From contig QPGO01000132.1 of assembly GCA_008632985.1 (NCBI GenBank), forward strand, positions 1-64,000: a DNA stretch of 64,000 nt, given 5' to 3'. How positions within the stretch are numbered: the first letter of the stretch is position 1; each line of letters opens with the position of its first letter. The notes under the pieces are model-generated. The model was not told where the DNA came from. It did no database searches and saw nothing but the letters and a program-made list of their open reading frames with translations. The DNA comes from Psammoneis japonica. Its lineage: Eukaryota. This document shows, piece by piece, positions 1 to 58,511 of the stretch. Both the position numbers and the translations under genes were made by a program.

Positions 1-1527
1 GGACCTCCACAGAATCCACACATTTTTACACCAAAGCTGTTGTCTTCTGCAATTTGTGCAAAAACAGACTTGACTGTTGTCTGACCAGGTGCATTGTTGC
101 AGACATGTTTTCTGAAATGTGCCTGATCAGATGACAGTCAATCTCATCATTTTTTGCAAAGACACTTTTCAATGTCAGCTGCCCACCCTCAGCCTCTGTG
201 TGTGTTTCCATGTGCCCTCTCATGCAGAGATGTTGCCCTTCTCAGAGAGTGTTTCCCCTGGTCTTGCCAGCCCATTTTGGCCACCTCTGCTGATGGTGCA
301 ACCTTGTTGTGGCATGATGAGCAACACTCTCCAGCAGCAGAAAGAAACTGGCACATGCATGCCTTGTGGCTCACAAGCCAGCTGACTTGTCTTGCAATTT
401 TCTGCCAGCTCAATGCAGTTTCTGTGCAGGCTTCAGTGCAATTCTGCATGCTGCTGAAATGTCCTCCAATGGCCACACAGTTAAATCTCAGAGCTGCTCC
501 TCTTGCTCATGTCCACCCACATTCCTCAACAATCTTTTCTCTCTCTGTTGGCTTGTCAAGTCCCCTTTGCTCTGCTGAGCAGTGAAAGCACTGCATCCAT
601 TGTGTGGCACACACGAGTGTGAAAATGAGTCATCCTTCAACATCATTTGGCAGGCATTCATTTTGTGGGTGCATTGGCGACACTTGTGCAACAGCTCTGG
701 CATTGTTTCTGCATGAGATTGAGGCTTTTTTCTGGCAGCCAACTCATGACATCATCAAGCACCCCTGTTTCTCTCACCCAGCTGCCAGCCCTGGACAACC
801 CATCCCTTCCTTGCTGGCATGTCTCAAGAGCTCCCTGCTTCGAGTGGCATTCTTTCTGCTGCTGTCACACTGCTTGGAGGTGTGAAGTTGGGCCTCTTTT
901 TGACAAGTGCAAGTCTGTGCCTGGTTTGCTTGGCAACCATGTTGCTGTCTCATTTGGTTGAGCAAGATTGGAAACGCCTGATGAGAGGAACCCACTTCGC
1001 AAAAAACATTGCAACAGGATGATTCAGTTCCTCTTGCGCGCGCCATTGACAACCAAACAAAGAGGATGAATTGCAAACCTTCACACCCACATAAAGTCAT
1101 TTTAACAAACATGTTCAATTCTGAACATCGATTGCTCTTTCGAGCTGCCCCCATGCCAACGCCTTCTTGTGTTTCTGAATGACAGACTAAAACTTTGACT
1201 TCTGCCCAGCCAAGTTCTGCCTTTCATTGATGTTCAAAAAATGCAGAAGACAGAAAACCACAGTTAGTTGTGTTTGTTCGTTTGCTGTGAGGTGACCTCA
1301 TGGAATCTACAGCAGCACACATGCAACTCGCAACGACTTCTTGCAAATGAAATTAAAAAGGGCAGTGTCACCAGGGAGAGGGACTTTTGCCGAGGACGGC
1401 AAAATGGTCCGGTGGTCGACACCTGACACCGAAAATGGACACTGGTGAGTGTGACCTCCTGCCAACAACAGATTTGCCTGGCCGCACCCTGGGTGACATC
1501 TCTAGATGCGCTCATTCATGTTCAACC

Positions 1528-2555
1528 ATGGATGAAGAGTCTGATCACGAAAGCATTGAGTCGTCGGCAGCGACTGTCGACGATGTCAAAGAGGGTGCGA
1601 ACTCTAAGAAGTTGGTTGTGCCAAGGACATTAGAGCCCAACGTTTGTGGGCAGATCCATCCCGTGGAGAGCCCCGAGTTGATCGCTGCAGCGCTCCCAGA
1701 GTTTGACAACGAGCTGCGGTTTGTTGAAACCAAACAGAAAGATGCTCTGCTTCAGGCCGAGAGAAAATGTCCTCAACTCCTGACAAAAGAATTAAAGCTC
1801 ATGTTCCTTTGTGCTGAAGTCTTTGACGTTGATGTGAGTCACCCTTCACAGACTTCACAGTGATTTTATGATCGTTGCATCTTCATTTGTTCCTGGTTTC
1901 TGTCTTTCTTCATGCGCAGCGTGCTGCAAAGCGTCACATGCGGCACTGGTCAAAGCGCTTGGACGTTTTTGGTCCTCTGAAGGCTTTCCAACCGCTCACA
2001 TTGCAGGGAGCTCTTTCAGATGACATTGACATCATTTGACCAGGATTTGTCCAACACTGCTTGACCAAAGATGCTTCTGGTTGTCCGCACGCAATGCTGA
2101 ATCCTGCAAAACTCGACCGAAACAAGTGCACTGTAGAGGGCATGGCGCGAGTGTGCTGGCATTTCTTGCATGTGATGAATGAATCCGAAATGGGGCAAAA
2201 GCAAGGGTTGGTCACATTGTTCTGCCTGGATGATCTTGGTGTGAAGCATGTGGATTGCAAATTAATCGGGGGAGTGATCCCTGGCATCCTCGGCATCACG
2301 CCGAACAGATGCAGTGCGATTCACGTTTTTAGACCTCCACCCTTTGTGCAACTGGTGATTCCTTTTCTGCACATGTTTTTGAATGAAAGGATGAAAAAGA
2401 GAGTTGTTTTTCACATTGACTCCAAGCAAAAGATCGCCAACTTGTTAGAGAGAGAATGTGGTTTGCCATTTGACTGCTTGCCAAAAGAACTCGGCGGCAA
2501 GGTGAGACTGTGTGTCGACAGTTGGATGGTTCAGAGACAGGCCGAAGGGAAGTGA
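1528..2555 (+). pseudogene. CRAL-TRIO (Sec14-like) lipid-binding protein, hypermutated paralog of 5727-6990
   Basis: Colinear with the intact gene (HPVESPELIA, AERKCPQLLTK, HVFRPPP, LPKELGG). Same intron position (1834-1919). In-frame TGA near 2037 where the paralog has Arg. Paralog Tyr codons read Cys or His. Confidence 0.9.
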
Positions 2556-2800
2556 ATTAAAAAACATGTGGGCAAATGATGCAGTTTAATTTGTTGTTCT
2601 TAATGGTTGCACTTTAGAACGCCAACTTGTCAGAGGGAGAATGTGGTTTGCCATTTGACTGCTTGCCAAAAGAACTCGGCGGCAAGTTGAGACTGTGCGT
2701 TGATGGTTGGATGGTTCAGACACAGGCCAAAGGGAAGTGAGTTAGAAAATTTGTTGGGAAAGGATGCAGTTTACTTTGCAGTTCTTAACAGTTGCACTTT
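2435..2800 (+). repeat. Tandem duplication of ~181 bp (2435-2615 and 2620-2800) covering the 3' end of the CRAL-TRIO pseudogene
   Basis: cgccaacttgt...gttgcacttt occurs twice with high identity. Confidence 0.9.
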
Positions 2801-5726
2801 CCATCACACTCTCTCTAAAGGCATGAGTTGACAGACATTTGACTGAGTGCTGACTTCGCGAACCAATGTTTTGTCAGTGGCACACTCTTCGAACTGCCCA
2901 GCCAACAACATGCTGCTGAGCCAGCCATTGCTGCAGCCCCATGGAGCCTGGCATTTGAATGACGTGTCCTTTTGCGTGCTTTTGGTGGGATTCACACTGG
3001 CAACAGACAGCCTTCATTTCCCTGCCTCAAGCCAGTGTGTGGTGCTGCACTTTTGAGGAGATTTTGTTCACAACCTGAAGCATTGCAGTCCAATTGTGAT
3101 CTTCTGTTCTCTGCTGGAAAACTTTCTCTTCTTGATTTTTCCATTTTCTAACTTTGTTTTCAGTTGGTGTCAATGACTCTGCCACACCCATGTGCAGCTG
3201 GGGAGAAATGTCCATGATGCAGTCCTGAGCTGCAGCTCATGTTATGACCAGCAAACATCTGTGGTGCACGACTGCAGCTGACAAGTTTTCTGTGGCTGAA
3301 CAACTTCAATCCAAGACCCTAAATCTCAAATCAAACATTTGAGTTCAAAATCCAGAACCCAAAACAGAGCTTGCTGCTTTAAGAGAGCTTGCGCCAAGGC
3401 TCACAAATTGGAGAGAGTGCTGAGAGCACTGCAAAATGCAAGAAACACATGCTCACAAGTGAGCCTCCTGGGAATCCCAAAAATGGCAGCACCAGGTGCG
3501 ACAAACAAGGTCACCACATGTGCCAAAAAGGAATGCCAAGGTTTGCTTGTGACTGGCCCCATGCTCAGTGCACACAACCACATGTCTGTGGCAGCATTGC
3601 AAGCTCACTTTTCACCCAGCTGATGCAACAACTTGCCAACAATGAGTTGGACCTGAGCCGCCCTCAAAAACAGCCTCACTTTTGGTTGCATCCAGAGGCC
3701 AGTTTTTTTGTGCTGGTGCTCATTCACACCATCACAATGCTGCTGCAGTTTTCATTGAATGTTGGCCAACCATGAATCATGTTCTCTTTCTTTTCATTTT
3801 TGCCATCAGCTGGGTGTGCCAGAAACCCAGCTTGCTGTGGGTTGATGGAAAGTGCAGAGCTGGCACAAACCACAGGATGCTGCAACCTGGCGCACAATGG
3901 CACGTTTCTAAAGTTTTCCTCTGAAATGTGGATCTTTGCTTGGGAACCATTTCTCAAGCACATTTGTTGAGCAATGTCAAAGGTCTTACACAGAGCTCTG
4001 CTGCTGCAGTGGTGGGTGCATGCGAGCAGTGGTGGCATGGACAACAACAATTTGGGGGCACCTTGTCTGCAAAGCCCCGGCATTGTCATTGGCTCCAGCT
4101 GCTTGACTTTGATGGCATCTTCCCAGGGTTGTCACCAGAGAGGATGAGAGATGGTGCAGAAGCCCTCACATGCCAATTTTGGGTTGTGCTCTCACACTGA
4201 CTGGTGCGCAAGACCCCACTGCCTCTGTTTTCACAGCAGCAGGAAAGGCGCAGTTTTGCCAAGAGGAGATTGACAAGGATGTGTGCAGCATTCTTCACTG
4301 CAACAAAGCACTGGCCCACGCAATTTGCCAAAACAAACATTTGCATCTGAGACAGTGATGCACATGGCATCTCTTGCATTTTCTTGGCTTGCCAACTCTG
4401 GGATCAAGGAAGCATGCAAGCCGGCCATCTCCCGCCCACTTGCGCTCACAAGGAGAACAAGGTGCTTTTCCTCTTTGATTTGCACCATTTTTTGCAGATG
4501 TGCCACGTGAAATTCCTGCTCAATCTTCAAAGATCAGGCACTTGAGCAACTTGTCTCGCAGCACCGATGACTGGGCTCTGCCGCAGCACAACCATCGCAT
4601 TGTTTTGCACCACGAACATGAGTGCACAAACAAGGGCACACCAAATTTTGCTCACACTGCTCCCCAGATGAGTGCTGCTTGAATTTTGCCCAGCAATGTG
4701 TGTTCAGGCAACAAAGTGAGCCACGGCTCTTGAGCCAGCTCTCGCTGTCTGTGTGGCTGCTGCGGCTTGTACAGCCAAAGTCTCCTGTCATTGATTTTGC
4801 TTTGGCTGGCTCTGGCAGTGTTGAAGAACATGAACCATCAATCGCTGACCATGTTGGGTGCAATTGAGGCACACTTGCTGGGTGTTGCAATGTGCGGCAA
4901 TCACTCCAACAATCTCCATGATTTGGTGATGCGTGCACCTCGAAAGGCAGCCTGCCCAGCCGGCTGACTTTGTGCCAAATTTTGAGAAAGAAAAGAGCTC
5001 ACCAAACTGTTGTGACAAACACGCACCTGTGGACGTCCAAGGCAGAAACGAGAAAACTGGGTTGGACTGAAAATCACAACCAAGCTTTGAAATGATGAGT
5101 GTTGGCAGCTGCCAAAGCTTTTTCGTCACGTTCTGTTCGCGGCGCGCGGTGCATTCGAAAATTTGATAATGCCCTGGGCCACCATCACACTCTCCTCTCC
5201 ACCACAACCACACATTCAACAAATGTTGAAAAGTGAGCGCGAGTTCCGCGAATCCCGTAAGGTTTATTCCCGCCAAAATTTTTTGATATTTGATTTATCT
5301 TTATTGTTTGTGCGTTAATATATTAATCTTCAGAGGTAGCACTATAGTGACGTTTATCAAAGTTAATTTAGCTGAAAATGTATATGAAATCCGTTGTAAG
5401 CAACAAATTTCTAACAGGTATCATGCGATTTTACATTCAAATTTCATATGTCACACATGAAAACTCAAATTTGATTCACAATCAATGATACCGACTTTAT
5501 GATAAATATTAGAGTGCAAAGTATTGGATAATTTTCGTTAACAAACTTGTATCAGAAATGAGAGTTTACTCATGTACGTTTCATAAGATTGGATAAACGG
5601 CGTTTACGTGCATGTGAAATTTCGCAAAAAATCTCGCAAAAACAAACAACACAAACGACGTGTTCTCGTCATACACAGTGTTGCATGAACGAGAACGCGG
5701 GTAGTTCCCACTTTTAGAACCCCACC

Positions 5727-6990
5727 ATGCCTCCCAACAAACCTGAAAGAACGTTAAAGAGAGCAGCTTCACTTGGAAGTGGAGTTGTATCCGATGATGG
5801 TAAAACAATAGAGTGGTCATGGACTGCAGAAGAAGGAAGCTCGGGAGTCACCAAGCAGAACGATGAGCCACTAGTAAACAACAACATACTGCTCTTCCCT
5901 CCAACACAAGATTTCCCCCTCCGCGTCCTGAGTGATGTTTCTTATCTTAATGATTCGTCAGTTTCTAGTCAGAATGACATGTCTTCCATCACAGATTCGG
6001 ATCGAGACAGCTCCATCGACGAAGGCAAGCCCTACATTGAGTCTCCTAGGAGTGCCAAATTGGTGGTACCGAGGTGCAGAAAGAATGACGTTTATGGGCA
6101 AAGCCATCCTTTGGAGAGTCCCGAGTTGATCGCTACAGCGCAGGACGAGTTTGAGAAAACGTTGCGTTTTGTCAGGCGGGAGAGAAGTGCCTATGCTCTT
6201 CGTCAGGCAGAGAAGAACTGTCCCGAACTGCTCACCAAAAAGTTCAAGCTCTTGTTCCTTCGTTCCGAGCGTTTTAACATTGATGTAAGTCACGAGCCCA
6301 ATCCTGGTGTTGACTTTGTTAGATCGTGGCTCACTCCTTGCTTTCTCTCTTTCTAACGAATAGCGTGCTGTAAAGCGCTATCTCACGTACTGGGACAGGC
6401 GCTTGGACATCTTCGGTCCCAAGAAGGCGTACCAACCGCTCACGTTGCAGGGAGCTCTTTCAGAAGACATTGACACTATAAGACTGGGATTCGTCCGAAT
6501 CTGTTTCGATGCCGACCTTTCGGGACGACCGTACTTTTTGTTGGATCCTTCAAAACTGGATCGAAAGAGCTACACCGCCGAGAGCATGTCGCGAGTGTGC
6601 TGGTACTTCTTGCACGTAGCGAACGAATCGGAAGCGGCCCAGAAGCGAGGTGTCATGTTATTGTGGTACCTGGAAGAATTCCGCATGAAGCATTTGGATC
6701 ACAAATTTGCCAAAATGGTTCTCCCGTCTATTCAAAGTGCCATTCCAATTCGGCTGAGTGCCGTGCACGTTTTTCGACCTCCGCCCGTGGTGAGAGTCAT
6801 CATTCCCTTTTTATACCTTTTTGTGATTGAAAGGATCAAAAAGCGAATTTTGTTTCACTTCGGATCCCAAGACGCAGTCGCCAAGTTAGCGGTGAAGAAG
6901 TACGGACTGGCTTTGCCGAAGGAACTCGGTGGCAAGCAGTGTCTTTGTATCGATCGTTGGGTGGAACAGCGACTAGCGGAAGGCAAGTAA
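5727..6990 (+). CDS. CRAL-TRIO (Sec14-like) domain protein, 2 exons (5727-6284, 6364-6990)
   Basis: GT-AG intron 6285-6363 joins the frames. Motifs FLRSERFNID-RAVKRYLTYWDRR, PIRLSAVHVFRPP, LPKELGG. Confidence 0.85.
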
Positions 6991-7479
6991 AAAAAAAAAG
7001 AAAAAAAAAAGACCAGCTAAGCATCTAATAATAAGATGACCAAGACCACTCGGTCTTAGCGCAATTACTTCAGTTTCTTTGTGCTGTACTCGTAACACCG
7101 TGACACTCTACTTGTAGCTACTAGAGTTCATATTATTTTTGAAGCATGTTGTCGCAATACAGTGAATGTGAAATGGTGCCCAAAAGCATGTTCAGTAAAG
7201 GGGTTTACGTTTCGTGACTGCGCGGAAGCCAACGTCGGTCAGCGCGCGCTCGCCGCTCGCCCAATCGTGGCTCGCCACGTCGTGTATGTACAGCATTCAT
7301 ACTGTAGGGCTATGATTGATACTGTACGGTACGTTGTGGAGCGGGCAGGCGCTCGCGCGTTGACAAACGTTTCAAATTTTTCGAAAGTCAATCTTCAAAA
7401 AATCTACTTGCATGCCTGCGGAAGAAGATTAAATTTTCAATTGCCCCCCCGGCCGGGCTCTTTTTTTTCGCTTTCTGTA

Positions 7480-9290
7480 GAGTCACATTGCAATGATGTT
7501 TTTAGATGGAGCTTTCTGACTGAACCCCGCTTCATTTGTTTCTTTCTTCTGACTTTCCTTTCTTCTTTGATGACTTGCCTTTGATGCAGCAAATCAAAAA
7601 GGAGAGGGTGTTGTTGCTGGGGCTGGATGATCTGTTTGTCCTTCACACAGCTTGTGTGCAGACAAGATGATGGATGCCAGCTCTGTTGGGGCGTAAAACA
7701 CGATGTGGGGTGAGCTGGTCCAGGTTTTTTCTTGGGCTCAATGTGCTTCCTTTAGTGAGGAGACTCATTTTGAAACAACTGGGATGCTGTGCCCTTTGTT
7801 CTTGTCTGCCCTGCACTGACAAATGGCAGCATGCTCAGCATCACTTGTGGCAAACACAGCAGCCGGCTGCTCCTGCATCAATGACATTTGCTTGAAGTCT
7901 GCCCCTCATTGCTCATGTCTGTTTTAAAGTCATGGCACCAATGCAGCTGGGCTGCTGGTGTCTCTCCCATGCTTTCTTGTGTGCCAGGTAGAAAAAGCAT
8001 GTGGCTGCTTTGACGTGCACCTTCAGGCTGTGGTGCAAGAGTGCAGCTCCATGCAAATGGAGTCTTGCCCAATCAAAAAAAGACTTTTTGGCAATTTTTT
8101 TGTCATTTCTGAGTTTCCAGCTTTGGGTGCACTGGCCTGCACAGCAGCAAAAACAAGAGAACCAGTGTGCAGGAAATGGGCGCAGCAGTCAGAAAGCCTT
8201 GGCACAGCAAGCAACAGGTTTTCTTTTTGTTTTGTCAGGTGGAGCAGCAGCATGAAACAACAGGGCAACGTGCATGGCAAAACATGCCCAAAGTGTGGTC
8301 CATGGAATGAGCCAGCACTTGCGTGACTGCGTCAATTGTTTGGAAAAAGGCCAAAGAAGTGGCTGGTCACAAAAGGAGAGCTGGCATGCTGAAAGATGGC
8401 AAGACTTTGTCAGAGTAAATGGGCCAGTGAAGGGGGTGCTTGCAAGCTTCAAAACTGGCAGAAAAATGAGCTTTTGACTGCGACGGGACCAAGCGGGGTG
8501 CTTGATGGAACAACACCCTTTTTTTCTCAAAGCTGATGCATGAAGCAATTTGTGAAACAGGGGTGAAATTCATGATGCTGCTGCAATTGCCGACATGCTG
8601 CATCACACAAGCTCTCCTCCTTGCACTGCTCTCGACATGCTTGGCTGCAGCTGCCGCACCTCTTGTTGGCACCACACAAGAGTGGTTGTTTTGTGATCTT
8701 TGGGGTTCAGAGTGACAGCACAAGCCCCATGGTGAGGAGGGGGGAGTGAAAAGCTTGCAAAGCTGGTCAATGAGAAACACGAGCATGTGATGGTGTGCTC
8801 CACTGTCAACTTGAAGGAGGGGCAGCTCTGGTCGATTTTTTGAATGTGCAGGTTGAAGCCATGGCTGACAAGGTTGGAACTTTTGTGTGTGCCAAGTTCA
8901 ACATTGCCAAGGAGGATAATCTCTCAGAAACAAAGGCATGGCATTGTGTTGTGAAAAAGCCGGCACACCATCTCTGCTGGCCGCCAAAGCTCCCAGAGCA
9001 GAGAAGTGCTTTGTGTGTTGCTGCCGCGCCGCTCCTTCACACAAACAACAGAGAGTTTCTGTGCCAAGGCTTGCAACAACAACACAAGAACCAGTGTGCA
9101 GATGGGTGCTGTGTCTGTGCAAGTGATGTTGCTGTGCAGTTTTCTGCCACTCTCAAGCCAAGCTGGCGGGGCTGTTTGCAGCACCCTCTCGATTTTTTTT
9201 TCTTTTGGAGTGCATGCAAGCTTGGGGCCTCTGCAGCTGCACTCCACAACACAGCCACACCCTCTGGGACAGCCTTTCCAAACAGATAAT
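7480..9290. other. TpA/CpG-depleted domain, degenerate repeat of unknown family
   Basis: Near absence of TA, TG/CA excess, no recognisable protein. Confidence 0.75.
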
Positions 9291-9624
9291 AAATGAGTGA
9301 GACCCTCGTCTGGCTCTCATGTTAGAGATGAAAGCACGATGGTCGAGGCTTTCTCACTGAAGTTCGTGCCAGAAACTTCAAGCGACAGCGGGGGTTGCTC
9401 TGTTTCGAATTTTCTTCAGTCACGATTTGTCACGATTCGCAACCTCCTGTCTCCTGTCGCTCACCATCACTTTCACTCTCTTGACTGTTGCCTGTTGCCT
9501 GTTGCCATTTTTGTCAGACGCTCAGGCCTGCACAACGCACAGTACCACCAACAAAGTGTCCTCTCTATAAAGTCAAGCTCTACTGGATGGCTGAAAGCTC
9601 GAAGAGAACAAAATCCTAGAAACT

Positions 9625-10602
9625 ATGCGGCCGAGCAACAGGCAGGGTGCTTTTTGGTGTTTTAGAAGTACAAACAATGTTCTTCCCACAACAACAACAA
9701 CCACTGCTCGATCACCAACACGCAATTCTTGTTGTTGCATTTCGGTCGCAATCATTCGCAAGAAACGACGACGGACTCTGTTAATTTTGCTTGTGTTTCT
9801 TTATTGCGTCCACCGGCTTCGCAGAAGCTACTTTGAACTCGAACTTGCCATTACTGATCCCTACCGTGAAGCACAAGTCATTTGGCCGTGGAGGTATTTT
9901 CAGGTCAAATACTTGCAACGACACCCCTCTGCAATACGCAACTTTACCATGACGGCCGAAAATGCATTTGTCATTAATGTGGATTCCGACACGGCTCGGT
10001 ATAGATCCTTTCGGTACCATAGCGGCAATGCGACCATTACACGCTTTTCGGCGTCCACGTGGACCAGAAACCACAATCGTTCGTCGGAACAAGAAATTTA
10101 TATGCATCAATATCCATGGATACAAACTTCAGTCCGCAAGAAAGCATTTGGGGATGCCGCGTGTGCACTCTCGCATATTCGACTGCTGGAACACTTTCTC
10201 GACATGGACAACATAGACTATATGTTTGTCTTTGAAGACGACGCCATATTTGACAAGAGATTCCTCGAAACACGTTCGATTCGCGCTCCAAACGATGCGC
10301 AAGCCATTCTCTTGAGCAAGACATCCACCAAACTTGTAGAGATTCCAATCAAGCACCACCAAAAATACGCAACCCGCGTCATTCAAGGCTTTGGCATGTT
10401 TGGATTTGTCATTACCAAGGAGGGAGCAAAGCGATTATTACAAATCATGCAACGTCGTGGTGACGCCGCCTTGGATGTGGTGCTCAATTCCAGACTTTTA
10501 ACCTATCATCCAATCGACTATTGGCCACTGGTGCATCATGCCGATCGACCTTCGACGAGACGAAAAGTAAACGATGGATTGTATCTCCACCGAAAGAGAT
10601 GA
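9625..10602 (+). CDS. Glycosyltransferase family 25-like, type II membrane protein
   Basis: N-terminal TM (TLLILLVFLYCV). Motifs FVINVDSDTAR, ACALSH, VFEDDA, GFVITKEGAKRLL. Start codon uncertain. Confidence 0.8.
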   Translation: MRPSNRQGAFWCFRSTNNVLPTTTTTTARSPTRNSCCCISVAIIRKKRRRTLLILLVFLYCVHRLRRSYFELELAITDPYREAQVIWPWRYFQVKYLQRHPSAIRNFTMTAENAFVINVDSDTARYRSFRYHSGNATITRFSASTWTRNHNRSSEQEIYMHQYPWIQTSVRKKAFGDAACALSHIRLLEHFLDMDNIDYMFVFEDDAIFDKRFLETRSIRAPNDAQAILLSKTSTKLVEIPIKHHQKYATRVIQGFGMFGFVITKEGAKRLLQIMQRRGDAALDVVLNSRLLTYHPIDYWPLVHHADRPSTRRKVNDGLYLHRKR

Positions 10603-10810: not shown

Positions 10811-13786
10811 TTACAAACTATCGGCGGAAGGAACATTAAGGGCATCGAGTTCCTGGTTGCAGTTTAGAAAATAGGATGGATCCGGAAAGCCATGGGTCCC
10901 ACTATCAGGGCTCGTCTTGTGGTGGATCGAAGACCACGTGATTCGGTTGGATAGGCCAGTCGTCATGGAGGTGCCAATGGTAAACGTTAGACCATGCCAG
11001 AATGCAAATTTTAAACGCTTCAGAAGCTTCCGGCCCTCATCATTGTCAGGGAGGTATGCTACGCGAAATTCCGATCTGTAAGAGACGCCTGGGTTGGAAT
11101 GGTAGCTCTTTTGTACGCCACCCTCGAAATCATATGTGATTACTATGCTGCCGGGAGCGAAACCTGCGCACGTCGTGTATTTGCATTGCGATACTTCCAT
11201 CGTCCCCGAGGGCATCTTGCCTTGCGGCTTACCGACCGGCTTGCGACAAACTGGACAGGTCTTGGCATGCTGGAGCGCGTGCTTGACACAATTGTAGTGA
11301 AAGACGTGTCCACAATCCTTGATGCTCACGACCCTCTCAAAACAGCGCAACGATGAAAGACAAATCGCACAATTGTCATCAGAATCATGACGTTTAATGT
11401 CTTCAAAGCTGTCCTTGTAATGAGAGTCTTGAAGTTTGGATGGGGCATCATATCGAATACTTTCATCGATTGAAGCACCTGAGTTACGGTGCGTGCTGCT
11501 GGTGCTTATTCCATGATGGGCTTGACTCTGGTTTGAAGGAATGGTGGCCGCCCCAAAAGGAACAATAGACAAAGGGTAGCCGCCAAAAGACACCCTGTAA
11601 CCAGCCGCGGAAGACGTAGACGGAGCGCTTGCACCCAACGCAAACGGGCCTGATCCAGCATAGGATCCAGATGTGTTAGTCACCGAAGATGTAGAGGCAG
11701 TCACACCAAACAAACTCCCAACGGCTCCTGAAGGCGGCACGGGTGCATTAGATGCTGAAAATGTAGAGGGAGCGCTCGCACCAAATGAGAAACTGCTTGC
11801 TCCTGAACTTGCTCCAAATGCATTAGACATAGAGGGAGCGATCCCACCAGAGGAAGACCCGACGGCTCCTGAAGTCGGTACAGATGCAGTAGAGGCAGCG
11901 CTTGCACCAAATGAGAAACCATAGGCTCCTGAGGTCGGCGCAGATACATTCGGCGTAGACCCGAAGGCTCGTGAAGCCGGCGCAGATGGATTAGATGCAG
12001 AGGGAGCGCTTGCGCCAAACGAGGAACCACTTGCTCCTGAGGTCGGCACAGATACATTAGAAGCTGATGATGTAGAGGGAGCGCTTGCACCGAACGAGAA
12101 ACCACTTGCTCCTGAACTCGGTCCAGACACATTAGACGCTGAAGATGTACCGGTAGCTGGCGCGCTTGTGCCAAACAAAGGCAAGGCTCCTGAATTGAAT
12201 GCAGTAGACGTGGATGGAGTACTTGCACCAAACGAAAAGGAGGCTGCTCCTTTAGAGGATCCAGTTGCGTTGGATGCTGAAGACGTAGATGAAGCACTTG
12301 CACCAAACGAAAAAGAAGCGCCTCCACCAAACGAAAAGGCTCCTGCTCCTGCATGGGATCCAGGTGTGTTGGACGTAGAATGGGCAGATTGAGCGATGCC
12401 ACTCAAAGAGAACACGCGTTTTCCAGTATTCATTCCAGACAAATGGGACAAAGAAGAGGGAGGAGCTCTGCGAACCGTAGCTCCTGAATTTGATACAAAT
12501 GCATTGGATGTAGATGAGAGAGAGGGAGCGCTCGCTACGGCTCCTGACCTGGAGGCAGACGAAGCGCCGCCTAGAGTCGTCGGCCAACCATACGGCGCTG
12601 CTGATCCGGAAGTGTCCCCAATCTTGGTCTTCACTCCATTGTTGAAGAACTTGTCCACAATCTTTTGGAGCTCCGTTTGGTAAATGGCCACGTTTCTGAC
12701 AGAAATGTCTAAGTTTCCTGATTCCACCAATATGCTTGGGTATTCAATCAGAGCGAGGCATTGGGAAGGCATACCCAAAACCACCATTGGACGAGCCGAT
12801 GGAGGTACTACCGTGTCGCACCAATCCTTCGTACTATTCTCGACTCCTTTGAGCCGGGCCACGATAAGCCCCACGTCGCCGTAGCGTTTGTAATCAAAAG
12901 GGTTGTTTCCCGTGTATACCCCGTCACCGTACACCGATCCATTGTGGTGGCTCTGAATACCACTTGCTTCACGCTTCGCCTTGGTGAGTAGCCCATCTGT
13001 CTTGATCCGAGCCATATTCTTTTTCAATGTGTAATGATAGCCGATATCGACATGCGTAGGCTTGCCGGCAATTTGAAACGCGTTTTGCGTTCGAAACAAA
13101 GCCTCGGCTTGAAACACCATGTCGTCAACCGCCACCGCTTTAAAGCTATCAAACCCGGACCCCTGCTGGCTCTTGAATCGTTCATCAAGCACCATTACGG
13201 CCTTGACGAAAAGCCACGCTTTCCCCGAATCGGTGCTTGCCATTTTCTGTTCCTCCGCGTCCTTTGAGTTTCGATGCAACTCGGCCTGCAAGTCCTTCGC
13301 GACCTGTTCATCACGTTGCTCTTGAAGTTGCATGCTCTTGCTCTTGAGAGGTGACTTGGCCGCCATCTTTTGTTGGAGCGCAAAAGCACGGTCGTTGTTG
13401 TGCTGGCAATTGTTTGGAACCCGGGCGTTTGGTCGAACCGTTGCTTTATCGGTGAAAACCTGGTTTTGAAGTTGAGCCGTTGTTGCGACCTTGCCAAAAG
13501 CTGGGCTTTGAAATTGTCTTTTGCCATGGGCGCTGTCGGACTTGACGTTTCGAGAAGTGCTGCCAAAATGTTGAATGAATCTTCCAGTCGCCGCATCATT
13601 TCCTTTCACCTTGACAAAATCTTTACGAATTTGAAACGACGGCGTGCATGATTTCTTCTTGTGCATGGTGCGGGTCTTGGCAGCCACCGCTGGCTTGCAA
13701 CCCCTTTCGTTGCCACGATGACTTTCCATTAGAGACCTGTCAATACGGGCCTTCTTGGCGGACGGTTGCTTCTTGGCCACCACCAT
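10811..13786 (-). CDS. Deltex-family RING-DTC E3 ubiquitin ligase with an N-terminal ADP-ribosyltransferase-like domain and FG-like repeats
   Basis: RING-H2 (CAIC...CGHVFHYNCV...CPVC) followed by the Deltex C-terminal domain (GKMPSGTM, RVAYLPDNDEG, FTIGTSMTTG, WSSIHHKT, HGFPDPSYF). Upstream HYT...YGDGVY motif. Repeated FSFGASA. Probable ATG at 13786. Confidence 0.85.
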   Translation of the reverse strand: MVVAKKQPSAKKARIDRSLMESHRGNERGCKPAVAAKTRTMHKKKSCTPSFQIRKDFVKVKGNDAATGRFIQHFGSTSRNVKSDSAHGKRQFQSPAFGKVATTAQLQNQVFTDKATVRPNARVPNNCQHNNDRAFALQQKMAAKSPLKSKSMQLQEQRDEQVAKDLQAELHRNSKDAEEQKMASTDSGKAWLFVKAVMVLDERFKSQQGSGFDSFKAVAVDDMVFQAEALFRTQNAFQIAGKPTHVDIGYHYTLKKNMARIKTDGLLTKAKREASGIQSHHNGSVYGDGVYTGNNPFDYKRYGDVGLIVARLKGVENSTKDWCDTVVPPSARPMVVLGMPSQCLALIEYPSILVESGNLDISVRNVAIYQTELQKIVDKFFNNGVKTKIGDTSGSAAPYGWPTTLGGASSASRSGAVASAPSLSSTSNAFVSNSGATVRRAPPSSLSHLSGMNTGKRVFSLSGIAQSAHSTSNTPGSHAGAGAFSFGGGASFSFGASASSTSSASNATGSSKGAASFSFGASTPSTSTAFNSGALPLFGTSAPATGTSSASNVSGPSSGASGFSFGASAPSTSSASNVSVPTSGASGSSFGASAPSASNPSAPASRAFGSTPNVSAPTSGAYGFSFGASAASTASVPTSGAVGSSSGGIAPSMSNAFGASSGASSFSFGASAPSTFSASNAPVPPSGAVGSLFGVTASTSSVTNTSGSYAGSGPFALGASAPSTSSAAGYRVSFGGYPLSIVPFGAATIPSNQSQAHHGISTSSTHRNSGASIDESIRYDAPSKLQDSHYKDSFEDIKRHDSDDNCAICLSSLRCFERVVSIKDCGHVFHYNCVKHALQHAKTCPVCRKPVGKPQGKMPSGTMEVSQCKYTTCAGFAPGSIVITYDFEGGVQKSYHSNPGVSYRSEFRVAYLPDNDEGRKLLKRLKFAFWHGLTFTIGTSMTTGLSNRITWSSIHHKTSPDSGTHGFPDPSYFLNCNQELDALNVPSADSL
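11580..12345 (-). repeat. Degenerate coding tandem repeat encoding (S/T)SGAxxFSFGASAPSTSSA
   Basis: About a dozen imperfect units visible in DNA (gcttgcaccaaa...gctcctga) and protein. Confidence 0.85.
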
Positions 13787-14153
13787 GATGATAGTTCTTT
13801 GTCTGACACTTGACACTCTTTTCTGCTCAAGTTTGGATAAAACTGGAAACCGTTGGCGATTTTCAGTCGTTGAAAGCGCGCTTGCTACATCGGACTCCAC
13901 CGACAAAAAATTCGCGCATTCGCGCGCCGCTTCGGTCCATCCATGATGACGTCATTGAAAACTCAAAACGAGCGAGCGAGTTGGCGGGAAAAAATGACGT
14001 GGTTCCGGCACCTCACGAAAAAGGTGGACGAAGCCTGATGATGCAAACGGTTGGCTGATCAGACATGCACTCAACAAAACACATCATTGCATCAAAAACA
14101 CTCAATTTGTGCATTTTCAAACGCGAGAACTATAGATTCACTAGTACAAACCA

Positions 14154-24426: not shown

Positions 24427-24910
24427 GGGGATGCAGAGGCTTTTACGGCAACAAATTACGTACGGAGTGTTGTCGACTCTGCTGATGACGCCGAATCATC
24501 TACCCCTCGACAACAGTGAAGAGATCGGCGATGCACGCACTGCCTCATCGAGATTCATTTTGTGAGGTGGGCAAAGTCGTGGCGCGCGTTTTCAGTTGGA
24601 CGCGCGACCGAGTCGTGGATGGTCGCGCTTGAGTCCCGACTTCTGCATGCTTGCTGTAGCTTCCACTGCTCGAGCGTTTTTTGAGTTCGCTGCATCACCC
24701 ATCACCCATCACCTCATGAGGTTGAACACAAAAGAAAGGACGTGAGAGAACAGGAATTGAGATCCAAACCTTCTGGTTATGCACCTGCAATCTCACAAAA
24801 AAGGAGCTTTCTGAAGAATACAATCCATCATACTGTAGACGACTGTGGACGTGACGTTTTCGCATACCGAGCACGACAAACGAAGCGCCGAAAAGTAAGA
24901 ACCGAGGAAC

Positions 24911-25954
24911 ATGAAGCAGCCAAACGATGATGATTCATCCTTAGAGATTGGTTCCTTGGAATCTGCCGAAAAGCACTCGATATCTTTGGACAGTGATCGT
25001 ACTTTGACCTATTACACCTTTCCAGACTACAACAACGACCACACATCGCCGTCCTATCCCGTCTTGTACCTTCATGGCTTTCCGGGCAACGGCCTGGAGG
25101 CGGCGGTGTTGTGTGCTCCCGCCGCTGCAAATGTCAAGCTATATGCCTTGGATCGTCATGGCATGGGTGAGTCCGACGGGTTTGACGGCAATAACTTGAC
25201 GACACCAAGAGAGAGATACGAGCAATTTTGCAAGGACGTGTGGGATCTTGCCGCAAAACTCGAGTGGAGCAAGTTTTCAATCATTGGTGTCAGTGGAGGT
25301 GGGCCCTTTGCGTGTGCAATCCTCGAGTCTTACTTGTCATCCAAGTTGCCAAAGAACAACGACAATATTGTGCTGGAACGAGTCGTATTGGTCGCAGGCG
25401 TTTGCTGTTCGGCGGGTGTTTCAGACATGTTTTCGATCAATCAAAAAATGTATTCCATGGGATCGACGGTCGAAACAAGTATGCTCTCGTATTGGAAACT
25501 ACGACTCTTGTTTGGTACGACGCGGTGGATGGTGAAAATCATGCCATCATCTTTAATGTTGAAAGGAGTTGCCAACAAGGAATTGCCCCAGGTGGATCAA
25601 GATTTACTCACCAACACTGCCATGGGCAAGGCCATGTATGATGTGCTTGTCGTGTCCTTGAAGAATGGTTCTTTTGGAGCGTTTTCAGAGGCGTGTACGA
25701 TTTTTCGGCCCAAACAGGAATGGGAAGATTCCTTGCGGCTGCACTATGCCAAAGAAAGCAATGCGCAAAACCTTCCTCGGATTCACATCTTTCAAGGAGC
25801 CAAAGACAAGAATGTGCCGCTCTCGCATGGAAAATACTTTCACGAGACCATCTTTGGCGGAAAGTCAACATTTTATCAGTACGATGGGCTAGGTCACATC
25901 AGTTTGGTTTATGAAAAGAGGGAGGAGTATCTCGCAAAGGCGGTAAATGGTTAG
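24911..25954 (+). CDS. Alpha/beta hydrolase fold protein
   Basis: Motifs HGFPG, DRHGMGES, nucleophile elbow GVSGGG, QGAKDKNVP, GH. Divergent from arginase. Confidence 0.9.
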   Translation: MKQPNDDDSSLEIGSLESAEKHSISLDSDRTLTYYTFPDYNNDHTSPSYPVLYLHGFPGNGLEAAVLCAPAAANVKLYALDRHGMGESDGFDGNNLTTPRERYEQFCKDVWDLAAKLEWSKFSIIGVSGGGPFACAILESYLSSKLPKNNDNIVLERVVLVAGVCCSAGVSDMFSINQKMYSMGSTVETSMLSYWKLRLLFGTTRWMVKIMPSSLMLKGVANKELPQVDQDLLTNTAMGKAMYDVLVVSLKNGSFGAFSEACTIFRPKQEWEDSLRLHYAKESNAQNLPRIHIFQGAKDKNVPLSHGKYFHETIFGGKSTFYQYDGLGHISLVYEKREEYLAKAVNG

Positions 25955-26278: not shown

Positions 26279-26893
26279 TTATTCTTGCCCATTGTTGGGA
26301 CGATAAATCCTGTCAGCCGTCACTGGATCAAAAAGTAATTGTAGCATGTGGGGCGCCATATAGGAGTAATACAACAACTGAATGGCCAACGGCAGTGTCA
26401 CCACGGCAATAGGCGATAAAAACAGTGGACCCGCAATCAACTCCAAGAGACGTCCCACGGCAACGAGTTGACATATTATACCCCCAACAAAAGCAAAGGT
26501 CCTGTGCGGTTGCCAAGTCAGCAAGTAAAACATTGTAAAGAGTATTCGAAATACTGTAAATGTGTAAACAAGCACTTTGAGTTCTTGATCTTGTCGATTG
26601 CCAAGCGCCACGGCGTACAAAATGAAAACGATCCAGGCGTGCATGTTTTCCGTGTCGTTGCGCTGAATGTGGCTCCATCGAGTGACCCATTGATTCTCGC
26701 TAACAGTGGTGGCAATGTGGCCACCAATGTGAAAGTCTTCTCGGTTTCGAAAGTTTCGAGTTTTGACACGAAGAAATCCAATGACTTGGGATGTAAAGGT
26801 GCACTTGAGCGAAAGGATCGAAACACCGAGAGCGACAGGTGCCAGTGACGGGTATTGGTCAAAGACGTTCTTGACTGTAGCAACCGTCATCAT
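26279..26893 (-). CDS. MAPEG family protein (microsomal GST / prostaglandin E synthase-like)
   Basis: Motifs R..F.N.ED, RWSHIQRNDTEN, FTVFRILFT...QPHRT, with hydrophobic helices. Confidence 0.75.
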   Translation of the reverse strand: MMTVATVKNVFDQYPSLAPVALGVSILSLKCTFTSQVIGFLRVKTRNFRNREDFHIGGHIATTVSENQWVTRWSHIQRNDTENMHAWIVFILYAVALGNRQDQELKVLVYTFTVFRILFTMFYLLTWQPHRTFAFVGGIICQLVAVGRLLELIAGPLFLSPIAVVTLPLAIQLLYYSYMAPHMLQLLFDPVTADRIYRPNNGQE

Positions 26894-27589
26894 CAATGTT
26901 TCTAAAAATATCAGCGGAGGAAACAAAGGAAGACGAGGCTCCGGATACAAAGCACAGTTCCTTCTTACTGTAGACTAGAGAGTATATTTTACTTTGCATG
27001 TCGTTGGATGATTCCGATGATACATCATGCAAATAATACGATCGGCTCGATCGGGCGCCGGGCGCCTCGGGAGTTTTTAGAAAATTTAATACCCTATTCA
27101 ATGATGCATGCTGTAAAAAAATTTAGTATAACGATTTGTGGGGAGGAGGTCGCGCATCGCGACCAACCGCACGACTCATGCGCGAGCAAAAAGCATCATC
27201 TTGCCCACAAGGTCGCAATGGTCACCACTGTAGAGAAGCAGCATGATTTTGCCAAGTGGTGGATCATTGCTGTCTAACTGCCAAATGGGCAGAAGAAAGG
27301 AGCATACACACGCATGTGATCAGAGGAGCTTGGTTGGCAGTGAACAGGAGGCTCAGCGAGCAAGTGTGCTGTCCTGGAAATGTGCATGAAGCCGGTGCTC
27401 CCAGCTTGTGCGCTGCATGTCTGTTTCAACCTCAATTGACTGGTTGAGACCCCTTCATTGCACAGCCTAGCTTCATCAACCTTGCCAGTCACTGCTGCAT
27501 CTTTGACAACAAAATCAGGAGCTGTGAGAGAGAAAGTCTGCAAAAAGACGTCGAGTCTGTCCAGCGTTCACCAACCCCCCCCCCCCCCC

Positions 27590-30500
27590 AATGCACAATT
27601 TGACAGACTCTTTCAGCACAAATTCCAAATTTGGTGTGCAAGATGATTCTTCAGCGGGTGTCACAGCAACAACAGAGGGACAACAACAATGGACACTGGA
27701 GCAGTTGTTGCCGTTGCGCCGTGTCATGAACTGGCCTTGGAGTCTGGTGGAGGAGGTGACTGTGCAGCTGATCTTCAGCAACGGTCTCCCTCCGAGCGGC
27801 AATGAGGATTTGTTTGAGCAACTCTGTGTTTCAGCATTGTTTCCATTCATCTTGGGTGTCCCATCAAATCAGGTGCAACTGCATTTGGTGGATGAGAACC
27901 GGGTTGGAGATCCAGAAGAAGACTGTGGGGGGGCACATTCAACAAAAAGAGTTGAGGAGTTGAAAAGTCATGAAGATGAAAGTGAAGCTGTCTCGCCTGC
28001 TGGTTGCCATGACTGTTTCATGGAGATTTGTGGGTGTGCTGCAAGAGGGCAAGAAGGTCTCCCTGAGTGCAGCTTCTGCACATTTTCTGGCCATGGTCAT
28101 GGGACAGGGCAGATGGACAAATGTCATGTCAAATGCGGAGCAAAAGGCCACAAGTTGCGCTTTGTTCATTTGGGGGCAAAGGCGACAGTTCTCATGATCC
28201 TTGACATTTGCGGCAATCTGCACGCGGTTGCCTGCATGAGTGACAGGGTTCCTCCAGGTGATGCAATGAGAAGATGGAAGAAGACCATCAGAGTGCACGA
28301 CATCGTAACAATGTCTGCATGCGTGACAAAATTACATTGCTGTGTTACAAAATTTACTTGTCTGCACATGACGGTTTTTGTCATTTGGTCAATTGTCAAT
28401 CTCCTGCTGTTCTTCATGTTTGAACACAGATGCTTTTTAATTTTTATGCTCTGCCTTTTTCACAACAACTGACGATCTTTAACGACAAGCCAAACACTGC
28501 AATTGCATGCAATGAAATTTTCATCATGCAAAGTGTGCACCAATTGTTTGATCAACAACTGTGCTCCAATTGGCCCATTCGTCCACATCGTCCTCTTCAT
28601 TCCATGTGTCTTGTCCACTCTCTTGCAAGAATTTCAAATGTGCCGCTGCCGCATTGGCCTGACCACAGCGCCGACTTTCAGCAGGCGATTGTGGCTGCCA
28701 GGGAACATTTCATGGCACAGGATGACTGAATGGACTGTGCAAGTGGACACTGCATAGAATCCATGAGGAAGCAATTGCTCTGAAACTGCGCACATCTGAT
28801 GCATCGAGAGTTTCCTGTCGTGTCGGTGGTTGGGAAAGCCTTCCGATCTGGAAGAAGCTTGTCTTGGAGTTTCAGAAGAAGACATCAGAACGAAAGCAAC
28901 AGAAGGTGCTCGTGCCGCACTGCTTCACGTGTGCCACAATGACTTTGCCAATTCTGAAAGGATCAAATTCATCATGTTTGCAAGAAAGAGTCAGGAAATC
29001 ACTGTGAGTGAATGACAGATTGATGTGCATGTCCCATTTTAGAAACAAATCTGACCAACACTTCCTTCTGTCCTGTGTGGCCCAAACAAACAGGGCCTTT
29101 TCTTGCGCTTCTGCTGCTCCTGGACATTCTTCATAAACCAAAACATTGTCCCCAATTGCTTCGATGGGGAGAACACGTAACTTGGGTGAGTGCTGAGTCT
29201 TCTCAGGTGTTGAAAGCCAGTTGTTTTGTTTGTGATCAAGCTGCCAGTGACCAACCAAGTCTGTGTGCTGATGCCGTTGCCTCACAGTTCTCTGGTCAGC
29301 TTGACAAGCAGTTGGATGGACCACTGCAAAAATCGATCCTGTGTCTTCCTGTTGAAGAAACATGGCAAACGGGAGGGAAACTGTTGATCGCCCTTTCGTG
29401 CGCCAAAGGTCACACAGGCAAAGTCATGCCATCCCTCCCGTTTGCATTGCAAAACTCTGTCTTACAAGTCAGGTGTGCATTTTCACTGTCTTCACCAACA
29501 CAATCCTCTCACTTTTCTGACATGAAGTTCAGTGACACAGGATGAACTTGGCAACGAGCATGCAAGCTGTTCCACTCAAACGTCACAGCGCCAATCCCTC
29601 GGTTGCAGGTGAGAGTGAGTGCACTTCCTCCCAGCGTGTGATTGTCCGTCCTGACTCTTGATGATTCCTTTTTCCCAGTTGGCAAAATCCAACTGTCAGC
29701 TGAAATTGCGGCATTGAGCCTCATTTGGTCCTCCATGCGTGACACAACCTGCTTCAGAAAACTGTCGAGGTCATGTTGTTGTGCGGCAGATGACAGCAGC
29801 TTGAAAAAGTCTTTCAAGAGACATTCCCCCAACCCTGCGTCAAAGTTCATCGCATGTCGGCAACAACAAAGAAACACTGGGAGATGGAGTGTTTCATAAA
29901 GCTTTTGAAGCTTCCGCCCGCATCCTTCTGTTCGCAGGACGAATTGCACTGTCCGGTCAATGAGGAGACGGATTTTCTTGTTTATTTTCTGAATGGATGA
30001 ACTGGGAGTTGCACTTGTGATGGGTGGATTGCCCAGCCTGCACCATGCGTGGAAGACAAGAAGGTCCTCGAGCAATTGAATGAAATTCCGGACGCTGCAG
30101 TTGAGTCTTTTTCCCTTGTGTTTTTTCTTTTTTTGGTTGTCGTCACCATCCTCAGCCTCACTCTCCTCTTTCTCATCCTCATTTTCGTCCCAGTCACCCT
30201 CTTCGGACTCCTCTGACCTTTCATCGTCAGAGTCCAAGTGCTCACTGGGTTGGCAGCAACTCTCAAAGTTCACTTTGGGTGTCTTGCGATTCTCTGGAAC
30301 AATGGGTTCGTCTGCGTCCTCATCAAGGAAGCATGACTCACATGCGTTTCGTCCCTCACTGGTCAACAGGAGAAGGTAGAAAACAAAAGCCATTCCAGCC
30401 CAGTGGTGAGAGTTGAGGAAGGTGAGCGACGTTGCTCCTCCTTTGAAGTTTGTTCGCAAAAAGGATGCTTTGCAAGTTGACCGGTGATTGCTGAAAATCC

Positions 30501-41637: not shown

Positions 41638-42308
41638 TTCAGTGTATCACACTAGAAGTAGCTGGGACGTATTGGAGCAGTCAATGCCTGGCGGGGGTAT
41701 TGACATTGACTGGGATGGCAAGAGAATGAGACACTCTTGAAATTAGTTGAGTAAGACAAGAACTCATGGAATGAACGATACCATTAATTTATTATCATCA
41801 CTTTTGATTACATCGTTCTCCATCATACTTGTGACTCGTGACGCTGTTTATCGATGAGGCCGTTAGACTGGGGTGAGCCTTCGTTAAAACGTCTCTACGC
41901 TTGATCTCCCTGGCATGGAACCAGCCATCTCAGATCTCAGTGCTAATGGCACAAATGGGTGTTCTTCTGGGAATTGCCTTGAGCATGACAAACGCAAGTC
42001 CACAAATCTCTCCACTCCTTGGGGCACGCTGAATTAACAGGATTTGCCAAATCTGCAAAAAGCACTGTGAATCTACCAACTGTTGCCTGCTGCAGAACAT
42101 GGATCCATGCTGCAGAAGAGCCATTGTGGCATCTGTCTTTTGGCCTTGCTTGGGCAACTGATTCATTCTTTGAGAGCTGCTTTTGCTTCCTTTGCTCACT
42201 CTGCCACATCTTCTGATGCTCATTGCTGGAACCCCCCGGAGGTCAAGATCTTCACTTCACATGCAGGTTGAAACAAGCCCGCAGACCAAAGGTGGATGCC
42301 AGCAGTTC

Positions 42309-47127: not shown

Positions 47128-47142
47128 CTCCCCAGTTTGCTT

Positions 47143-58390: not shown

Positions 58391-58511
58391 CTAATCTCGC
58401 TCCGAGCAACACAACACACAACAAACGAAAAACTGCCGCCAGCGATGACAACAACCATCAGAAGAAAGTGAAGAGTTGATTGTTGTTTGATATAAGCAAG
58501 AGTTCATCACA

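Follow-up and report, generated by a model that had tools for sequence, protein, structure and literature searches.

At the start of a contig of the diatom Psammoneis japonica (QPGO01000132.1, GenBank assembly GCA_008632985.1) lie two genes of the CRAL-TRIO family, on the same strand and around 3 kb apart. Here we describe how the first of these (copy A) has been stripped of TA dinucleotides, most of which have become TG or CA, as has the DNA on either side of it, whilst the second (gene B) stands intact within a short island of DNA of ordinary composition. The analysis covers positions 1 to 64,000 of the forward strand of the contig, and this whole stretch is referred to below as the window.

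Profiles of observed-to-expected dinucleotide ratios (o/e), calculated in steps of 1 kb and 400 bp and complemented by a crude segmentation, divide the 64-kb window into two kinds of DNA that meet at sharp borders. In normal DNA, that is, the gene-bearing stretches including their intergenic DNA, TA o/e is 0.48-0.63 and CG o/e is around 1. In the remainder, which we call hit DNA and which by the crude segmentation accounts for about 32.5 of the 64 kb, TA o/e falls to 0.04-0.11 and CG o/e to 0.2-0.7, TG and CA rise to 1.5-1.9, and the GC content of the domains is 0.47-0.52. Hit domains range from 0.6 to 10 kb in size and appear as clustered windows that are at once poor in TpA and rich in CpA and TpG. 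The features on which the argument depends are the following.

1-5120, no strand: left hit domain, which contains copy A between more decayed flanks (TA o/e 0.03-0.19, CG o/e 0.08-0.69)
1-1000, no strand: dispersed repeat upstream of copy A, seen as raised summed contig depth in sequencing run X1
1318-1527, plus strand: frameshifted N-terminal remnant of copy A, recognised by reading the frames against B
1528-1833, plus strand: copy A exon 1 as first annotated, supported by alignment; the open frame could begin at the ATG at 1432
1834-1919, plus strand: copy A intron (GTGAGT..CAG), at the position and in the phase of the B intron
1920-2555, plus strand: copy A exon 2, CRAL-TRIO domain (PF00650, by translation), stop TGA
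2037-2039, plus strand: premature in-frame TGA of copy A, where B has AGA (Arg)
2431-2800, plus strand: tandem duplicate of the 3' end of A, unit of 185 bases (2431-2615 against 2616-2800, 88% identical)
5121-7480, no strand: normal island of 2.4 kb holding gene B, defined by TA and CG o/e and by the positions of TA
5673-7065, plus strand: spliced contig of run X2 over gene B, covering 5673-6284 and 6364-7065
5727-6284, plus strand: gene B exon 1, 186 codons, by translation and from the spliced contig
6285-6363, plus strand: gene B intron, 79 nt, GT..AG, phase 0
6364-6990, plus strand: gene B exon 2, CRAL-TRIO domain (PF00650), stop TAA
7481-9300, no strand: right hit domain that closes the island (TA o/e 0.08, CG o/e 0.22)

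Gene B has an intact reading frame of 394 codons in total, and its exon 2 matches the Pfam family PF00650 (CRAL_TRIO) with 59.7 bits (E 3.8e-16) against a curated cut-off of 22.6 bits. A contig of run X2 joins position 6284 exactly to 6364 across the intron, which confirms the gene model and shows that B is expressed; the kind of run X2 is given only by a program's guess ('DNA?'), but the pattern of its coverage is that of a transcriptome, its contigs covering only 5673-7065 and 9486-10000 within positions 1-10000. The TA o/e of B (0.49) is at the level of the other genes in the window. Among named proteins, its closest CRAL-TRIO relatives belong to Seminavis robusta and Nitzschia sp. A protein word search with B exon 2 returned none among longer proteins and a single Nitzschia protein (39% identity) among those of near length, and a scan of metagenome contigs with the same exon gave 160 pattern matches of which none was confirmed.

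Copy A is still recognisable as a member of the family, with 2040-2552 matching PF00650 at 47.2 bits (E 2.6e-12), but carries two disabling lesions. The frame from 1302 reads MKLKRAVSPGRGTFAEDGKMVRW, which resembles the LKRAASLGSGVVSDDGKTIEW of B, and then meets a stop, after which homology to B resumes in the frame from 1300, so that the N-terminal region is frameshifted. The premature TGA within exon 2 plausibly arose by CGA>TGA, although the corresponding column is variable in the outgroups. With these two lesions A is a pseudogene. Run X2 has no contigs over 1-5344, and this was not counted as evidence on the expression of A. The two units of the 3' tandem duplicate differ at 22 bases, eight of which (at six sites) set TA or CG against TG or CA, or TG against CA.

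In composition A belongs to the hit DNA (TA o/e 0.12 and CG o/e 0.69 overall, 0.10 and 0.65 in exon 2) and yet is less decayed than the DNA on either side of it. To the left, TA o/e is 0.03 and CG o/e 0.08 over 1-1000; to the right, the corresponding figures over 2801-5120 are 0.05 and 0.26, and in both flanks TG and CA stand at 1.8-1.9. Measured in 400-bp windows, CG o/e drops from 0.76 in mid-A to 0.4 and then to 0.1-0.2 on both sides, a gradient that fits late engulfment of A by spreading, although windows of this size smooth any step.

The introns of A and B both follow codons for (F/I)D(V/I)D and precede those for RA(A/V)KR. Same orientation together with the same position and phase of the intron marks the pair as a tandem duplicate made at the DNA level and not as a retrocopy. 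The pair is old (dS 0.94, dN/dS 0.33), with identical amino acids at 157 of 274 codons (57%), and A was a working paralog for most of its own history. The first-pass annotation of this DNA had already recognised a diverged paralog pair, which the alignment bears out, but had overlooked both the age of the duplication and the tandem duplicate at the 3' end of A; it had placed copy A at 1528-2555, of which the end is right whereas homology to B begins near 1318.

Dinucleotides were compared over four ungapped blocks of the two genes (857 nt, 68.4% identical). Opposite the 27 TA of B, copy A has TG at 11, CA at 10, some other dinucleotide at six and TA at none. Only one of the seven TA of A, on the other hand, faces TG or CA in B, and the asymmetry of 21 against 1 is far beyond chance (binomial p=1.1e-5). 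CG behaves similarly but less completely: of 58 in B, 17 are kept in A and 18 have become TG or CA, against five in the reverse direction (p=0.011). The intron of A has one TA where that of B has four. At the protein level, exon 2 of A is without a single Tyr codon, and eight of the nine exon 2 Tyr of B stand opposite His or Cys. The individual examples quoted in the first-pass annotation are all present in the alignment, namely TAT/TGT, gctAcagc/gctGcagc, gTaaag/gCaaag and Tactgg/Cactgg (B first), the donor GTAAG/GTGAG, acceptor TAG/CAG and stop TAA/TGA, and the peptides WYFLH/WHFLH, WYL/FCL, FLYL/FLHM and KYG/ECG. Its picture of a copy mutated at TA sites was sound as far as it went, TA having become TG or CA at 21 of 27 sites, but it left out the change of CG to TG or CA as well as the premature TGA and the N-terminal frameshift.

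Three of the TA sites have a function beyond coding: those at 1835, 1917 and 2553 in A (6286, 6361 and 6988 in B) lie in the splice donor GTAAGT, the acceptor TAG and the stop TAA, respectively. At each of them one of the two outcomes would preserve this function and the other abolish it, and at all three A shows the outcome that keeps function (GTGAGT, CAG and TGA), for which the chance is 1 in 8. The pattern hints at selection still acting on A at the time of its first hits.

The direction of change is fixed by outgroups. A HMMER search with B exon 2 against 1.84 billion representative sequences yielded 1236 proteins with E<=0.001, the best of them 47% identical, and A and B were aligned with 55 of the first 60 matches, the five longer than 700 amino acids being left out; polarity thus rests on protein sequences, and gaps were counted as rows in the column tallies. 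Ten columns have Tyr in B and His, Cys or Phe in A, and at seven of them Tyr is also the commonest residue of the outgroups (in 30, 29, 49, 41, 52, 18 and 31 of 55 rows). At the columns with Cys in A and Arg in B, Arg is found in 55 of 55 and 35 of 55 outgroup rows. A FastTree phylogeny of the 57 sequences places A and B as sisters with support 1.0, on branches of 0.50 and 0.35, respectively. Among 126 columns of strong consensus, A alone departs at 17, including six changes of Tyr to Cys or His and two of Arg to Cys, and all six of the strongly conserved Tyr are lost from it. B alone departs at ten, none of them of these kinds. With the hit class set aside the two copies have diverged equally from the consensus (nine columns for A, ten for B). 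Since the outgroup proteins have Tyr at positions occupied by His or Cys in A, it is A that is derived. The proposal that the intact gene polarises the comparison is therefore upheld, and the finding that had been named as fatal to it, Cys or His in the outgroups at these positions, was looked for in this alignment and not encountered at the seven columns where Tyr prevails.

This result bears on a mirror-image account of the pair, in which A would be ancestral and B would have gained its TA through a CpA>TpA process like that of repeat-induced point mutation (RIP), and, with it, on the suspicion that the TA deficit is an artefact of sequencing, modified bases being a possible source of systematic miscalls in long-read assemblies. 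The Tyr and Arg of the outgroups speak against the first. As for the second, contigs of run X1 reproduce positions 280-10000 on their own, with 3, 0, 5 and 2 differing letters in 2202, 195, 5948 and 1395 bases, so the sequence is real and not an artefact of assembly. B, moreover, is spliced and open and has the TA content of other genes. We consider either version to be barely credible.

The sparing of B might be ascribed to selection. On such an account TA and CG would be lost throughout the genome through a general mutation bias and retained only in DNA under selection, such as B; A, as a pseudogene, would be free to decay. The non-coding DNA of the island is at odds with this. The intron of B has a TA o/e of 0.76, against 0.18 in the intron of A and 0.19 in the DNA upstream of A, and the 606 bp of non-coding DNA upstream of B (5121-5726) and the 490 bp downstream (6991-7480) have TA o/e of 0.68 and 0.77 and CG o/e of 1.52 and 1.35. 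Since the intron and non-coding flanks of B keep their TA, purifying selection cannot explain its sparing. Other gene-bearing stretches of the window likewise keep TA in their intergenic DNA, and the borders of the island, near 5120 and 7480, are sharp to 100-200 bp. An untargeted bias is for these reasons very improbable.

A third possibility is a homology trigger, in which A would have been mutated in the manner of RIP by way of a closer copy elsewhere in the genome, B being too diverged to pair. Systems of this type are the classical route by which repeats are mutated, and the 88% identical tandem units at the 3' end of A are a repeat of sorts. The copy number of A was assessed from contigs of DNA run X1 at a likeness of at least 85%. 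Summed depth corresponds to one contig alone over 1003-2338 (66.5) and 2673-7348 (62.6), the same as over B, with no second contig at this likeness over either interval, which speaks against a nearer copy. The hit DNA of 2801-5120 and 7481-9300 is also at single-copy depth, and the hit state runs without interruption over the unique flanks of A. In a comparison of the window with itself, the only relative of A apart from its own tandem duplicate is B (68%), which is not hit. Depth is raised only in the dispersed repeat at the very start of the window, where it reaches 532 over 1-334 and 81-105 over 335-1002 compared with 62-66 beyond; many X1 contigs overlap only part of this repeat. We regard a homology trigger as improbable. 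The first-pass annotation had put forward three causes for the hit on a gene that is not a transposon (a chromatin domain, spreading from flanking repeats, or homology to a closer copy elsewhere); the first two give the best fit, run X1 speaks against the last, and the underlying claim, that a host gene was hit and its paralog 3 kb away spared, holds, with A at single-contig depth and the flanks of B at TA o/e 0.68-0.77.

An independent view of the process comes from a full-length retrotransposon in another hit domain.

46852-53935, minus strand: Copia-type retrotransposon with two long terminal repeats (LTRs) and an RVT_2 match

Its LTRs (46852-47127 and 53660-53935) are 92.4% identical over 276 nt, and the element contains an open frame of 1528 codons (47075/47078-51661; RVT_2 E 2.3e-22). 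Fourteen of the 15 sites at which the LTRs differ fall into the class of TA or CG to TG or CA: six set TG against CA, two TA against TG and six CG against TG or CA, leaving one of another kind. As the LTRs were identical at insertion and now differ by this class, mutation struck each LTR separately, in situ, once the element had inserted. The element also serves as an internal, independent clock of the two processes. Across it TA o/e is 0.07-0.2 and CG o/e 0.75-0.94, whereas old flanking DNA is depleted of both; a young element that has lost nearly all of its TA but little of its CG, beside old DNA that has lost both, indicates that TA disappears far more rapidly than CG and that the two processes can be separated. 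TG and CA outcomes are nearly equal in A (11 and 10) and so show no strand bias. This balance, the presence of an intron in the target and the divergence of the LTRs together point to double-stranded chromosomal DNA as the substrate and not to an RNA or cDNA intermediate.

The TA process has a marked preference for flanking bases (R, purine; Y, pyrimidine). Survival of TA in hit relative to normal DNA is 0.31-0.40 at YTAR sites (CTAA/TTAG, TTAA and CTAG), 0.03-0.13 at mixed sites and 0-0.05 at RTAY sites (GTAC, ATAC/GTAT and ATAT), so that YTAR makes up 71 of the 147 surviving TA in hit DNA and 154 of 977 in normal DNA (p=5e-17). The polarised differences between A and B follow the same rule, with one of four YTAR sites converted to TG or CA and 20 of 23 others (p=0.025). 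CG, unlike TA, is halved in hit DNA in every context and shows no flank preference. A stricter rule, under which A would change to G only within 5'-TAY, would account for this preference of the TA process but was set aside as unsupported: the composition fits it, YTGY plus RCAR rising from 41.6 per kb in normal to 63.9 per kb in hit DNA and YCAY plus RTGR only from 39.0 to 44.1, but the polarised events and the context of His codons do not.

The effect on coding content is considerable. Tyr makes up 0.39% of codons (11 of 2847) in three open reading frames (ORFs) of hit DNA and 2.82% in eight of normal DNA, whilst Cys stands at 3.83% against 2.22% and His at 5.20% against 2.49%. TAA and TAG are nearly gone from the hit domains, and long open frames are found there on both strands. 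With most of these stops removed, hit DNA contains many long false ORFs. The 6.2 kb around A (1-1330, 2560-5250 and 7400-9600) provide an example, with 43 stop-to-stop ORFs of at least 70 amino acids; only one of these has a Pfam match at E<=0.01, which is the level of chance.

The explanation that we favour, with a probability of roughly three in four, is domain-targeted TpA hypermutation accompanied by CpG decay, with the host gene A as collateral damage. In this account A and B descend from a CRAL-TRIO gene of the diatom by an old tandem duplication, B lying intact and spliced in an active island and A inside a silent, transposon-rich domain. A fast process would turn TpA into TpG or CpA (A>G, or T>C on the other strand), the two outcomes being about equally frequent, and a slower one, the usual decay of methylated cytosine, would turn CpG into TpG or CpA. 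Both would be directed by region and not by repetition, and hence the single-copy A would be hit along with the transposons around it. Every conserved Tyr codon of A has gone, several Arg codons have been lost as well, and a stop has appeared. The enzyme may be a TadA/ADAT2-like adenine deaminase that uses DNA as its substrate, or the cause may lie in modification of T at TpA. An A preceded by T is what TadA/ADAT2 naturally meets at tRNA position 34. Silent chromatin would be the targeting signal, and A would have been silenced either before or by the spreading.

The order of these last events could also have been the reverse, with A dying first through its frameshift, ceasing to be transcribed and only then being hit, transcription being what protects the islands and spreading having no causal part. 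The frameshift is indeed outside the hit class, the loss of all six strongly conserved Tyr would hardly be tolerable in a working gene, and within 1-10000 the normal islands coincide with spliced or cDNA-like contigs of run X2. However, that A departs from the consensus no more than B once the hit class is set aside implies little time for ordinary neutral decay of A, the fall in CG o/e from mid-A to both flanks is as expected from spreading, and the donor, acceptor and stop have all kept their function. Death before mutation is accordingly possible but somewhat unlikely.

Several observations weigh against domain-targeted hypermutation of A. Only about 39 of the approximately 271 bases that differ between A and B belong to the hit class, the rest being mostly ordinary old substitution. 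At three of the ten Tyr columns the outgroups have no Tyr, the commonest residues being Phe (40 of 55 rows), Ile (34) and Lys (29); at the Phe column they agree with A, and at the Ile and Lys columns with neither copy. A simple TAY strand rule finds no support, since the polarised events are mixed (four TG and four CA at YTAY, three TG and two CA at RTAR) and His codons in hit ORFs are not enriched after purine (64 after R, 84 after Y). The silent chromatin and the enzyme are both things that we infer. Finally, the differences between run X1 and the window, described next, are unpolarised and may be alleles of a single diploid sample.

Ten differences separate the X1 contigs from the window, in a tally that leaves out eight rows at 46-215 (repeated DNA, 32-41 letters from contig ends). 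All ten lie inside hit domains, and nine set TA or CG against TG or CA, or TG against CA, so that judging by its class of differences the process is possibly ongoing. One pair deserves separate mention: at 8683-8684 the window has TG and the X1 contig CA, on adjacent bases, as though the process had struck one allele on one strand and the second allele on the other, and in this it resembles the TG-against-CA pairs of the Copia LTRs.

A search of the full-text literature for TpA hypermutation or TpA-poor domains in diatoms found neither, and brought up only one relevant report, a 2026 preprint on the chlorarachniophyte Bigelowiella natans (Mettrop et al., bioRxiv 10.64898/2026.01.13.699255). 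In the sections of it used here, 231 of 302 new mutations fall in two integrated viral regions, and 230 of these 231 are A>G/T>C changes, all 230 at TpA; 124 clusters of TpA-poor, CpA- and TpG-rich windows are described, and an ADAT2-like candidate enzyme is proposed (Mettrop et al.). The changes of TpA to TpG and CpA (21 of 27 in A, and in the LTR pair) and the clustering of windows of this composition are common to both organisms. TpA-poor genes of B. natans are enriched in transposon domains, according to the same sections, and the hit domains here hold the Copia element and a Plavaka-like ORF (Pfam E 0.024, below the cut-off), although A itself is a single-copy host gene. Both processes are regional and act on DNA, one of the B. 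natans targets being described as single-copy and transcriptionally silent. The differences are equally clear. The host here is a diatom, and thus a stramenopile; conversion is far more complete, with a TA o/e of 0.03-0.1 over about half of 64 kb compared with the Rho of 0.45 given for the B. natans region derived from a nucleocytoplasmic large DNA virus (NCLDV); and set beside what those parts of the preprint describe, CpG decay coincides with TpA loss and polarity comes from a host gene whose sister copy is intact. The preference for RTAY over YTAR is not reported in the same sections. A mutation rate per generation that is raised by orders of magnitude in the target region is a mark of the B. 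natans kind; the only hint of it here is that nine of the ten differences between X1 and the window are of the hit class, all ten lying in hit domains.

The hit domains share with RIP the occurrence of irreversible, dinucleotide-specific transitions in transposon-rich regions. RIP, as known from ascomycetes, changes C to T mostly at CpA, so making TpA and AT-rich DNA, and needs both a sexual cycle and a duplicated sequence, its target being a duplicate of roughly 80% identity over some hundred bases; in Leptosphaeria maculans it can reportedly reach single-copy genes beside repeats. Here, in contrast, TpA is destroyed (o/e 0.03-0.1) and base composition keeps to about 47-50% GC (0.47-0.52 in hit domains), and the target A is single-copy by X1 depth, its only relative in the window being unhit. 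RIP is therefore a functional analogue, but membership of the same family fails on TpA being made in the one and destroyed in the other and on the need for repeats.

Decay of methylated CpG is represented by the change of CG to TG or CA in the same domains (18 against five in A, with CG o/e as low as 0.08), and the Arg to Cys changes of A, at columns with Arg in 55 and 35 of 55 outgroup rows, belong to the same excess. It accounts for the CG half only; the TA process is faster, as the Copia element demonstrates, and CG loss lacks a flank preference. Diatom transposons are methylated, and the CG half is probably ordinary decay of this type, methylation itself being presumed. With the deaminase defences based on ADAR, APOBEC or TadA/ADAT2 the process has in common that its transitions occur beside a fixed neighbouring base. 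It differs from those that edit RNA or cDNA intermediates in its balance of TG and CA, its intron-bearing target and the divergence of LTRs after insertion.

With its internal control and fixed polarity, the A/B pair makes a clean case of TpA hypermutation: two members of one family, on one strand and in one neighbourhood, lie one on each side of a border, and 55 outgroups fix the direction. It shows that the process acts on chromosomal DNA in place, needs no repeat, can destroy host genes and halts at a border, sharp to 100-200 bp, beside an expressed gene. A phenomenon so far described in one chlorarachniophyte preprint is here extended to diatoms, which are major marine primary producers. 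The tetranucleotide preference and the separability from CpG decay offer two handles towards the enzyme. There is also a practical consequence, in that the false ORFs of hit DNA mislead gene annotation, and hit transposons escape homology searches and so mislead the annotation of repeats.

On a bolder reading, diatoms may possess a repeat-independent genome-defence mutator, guided by silent chromatin, that converts TpA (RTAY first) to TpG or CpA on both strands around ten times faster than methylated CpG decays and that, to judge by the class of the differences between X1 and the window, is still active. We put this fuller proposal at even odds. If true, it would mean that such a mutator leaves the contents of a domain, host genes included, almost without Tyr codons or TAA and TAG stops; that a second lineage besides Rhizaria has independently acquired a defence based on A>G (or T>C) editing of DNA; and that whether a neighbouring gene survives depends on the borders of heterochromatin.

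Further instances of both kinds of DNA are found elsewhere in the window. Within 27 kb of hit DNA there is a small normal island at 40750-42050 (TA o/e 0.63, CG o/e 0.97) that contains an ORF without a Pfam family (40885-41637, plus strand) and that may, as with B, represent a gene that is expressed and protected. The converse is seen at 57850-58450, where a 0.6-kb hit patch (TA o/e 0.06, CG o/e 0.48) amid normal gene-bearing DNA overlaps an ORF on the minus strand (57619-58296), also without a Pfam family, that adjoins a META-domain ORF. The Plavaka-like ORF mentioned above is an open frame of 920 codons on the minus strand of hit DNA (29512-32271) resembling Plavaka-type transposases, for which a protein-atlas score of 0.95 is a lead only. 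Host genes in normal DNA comprise those for a family 25 glycosyltransferase (9625-10602), a Deltex-type RING protein of around 1030 codons (10811-13906), an arginase (23257/23260-24495), an alpha/beta hydrolase (24899-25954), a MAPEG protein (26279-26974) and an ABC transporter (62029-63998). A protein-atlas search with the arginase ORF yielded no usable taxon. As the first-pass annotation had guessed, the source is a diatom: the named best matches of this ORF all come from that group (Fragilaria, Thalassiosira, Skeletonema, Seminavis, Nitzschia and others), at identities of up to 69%.

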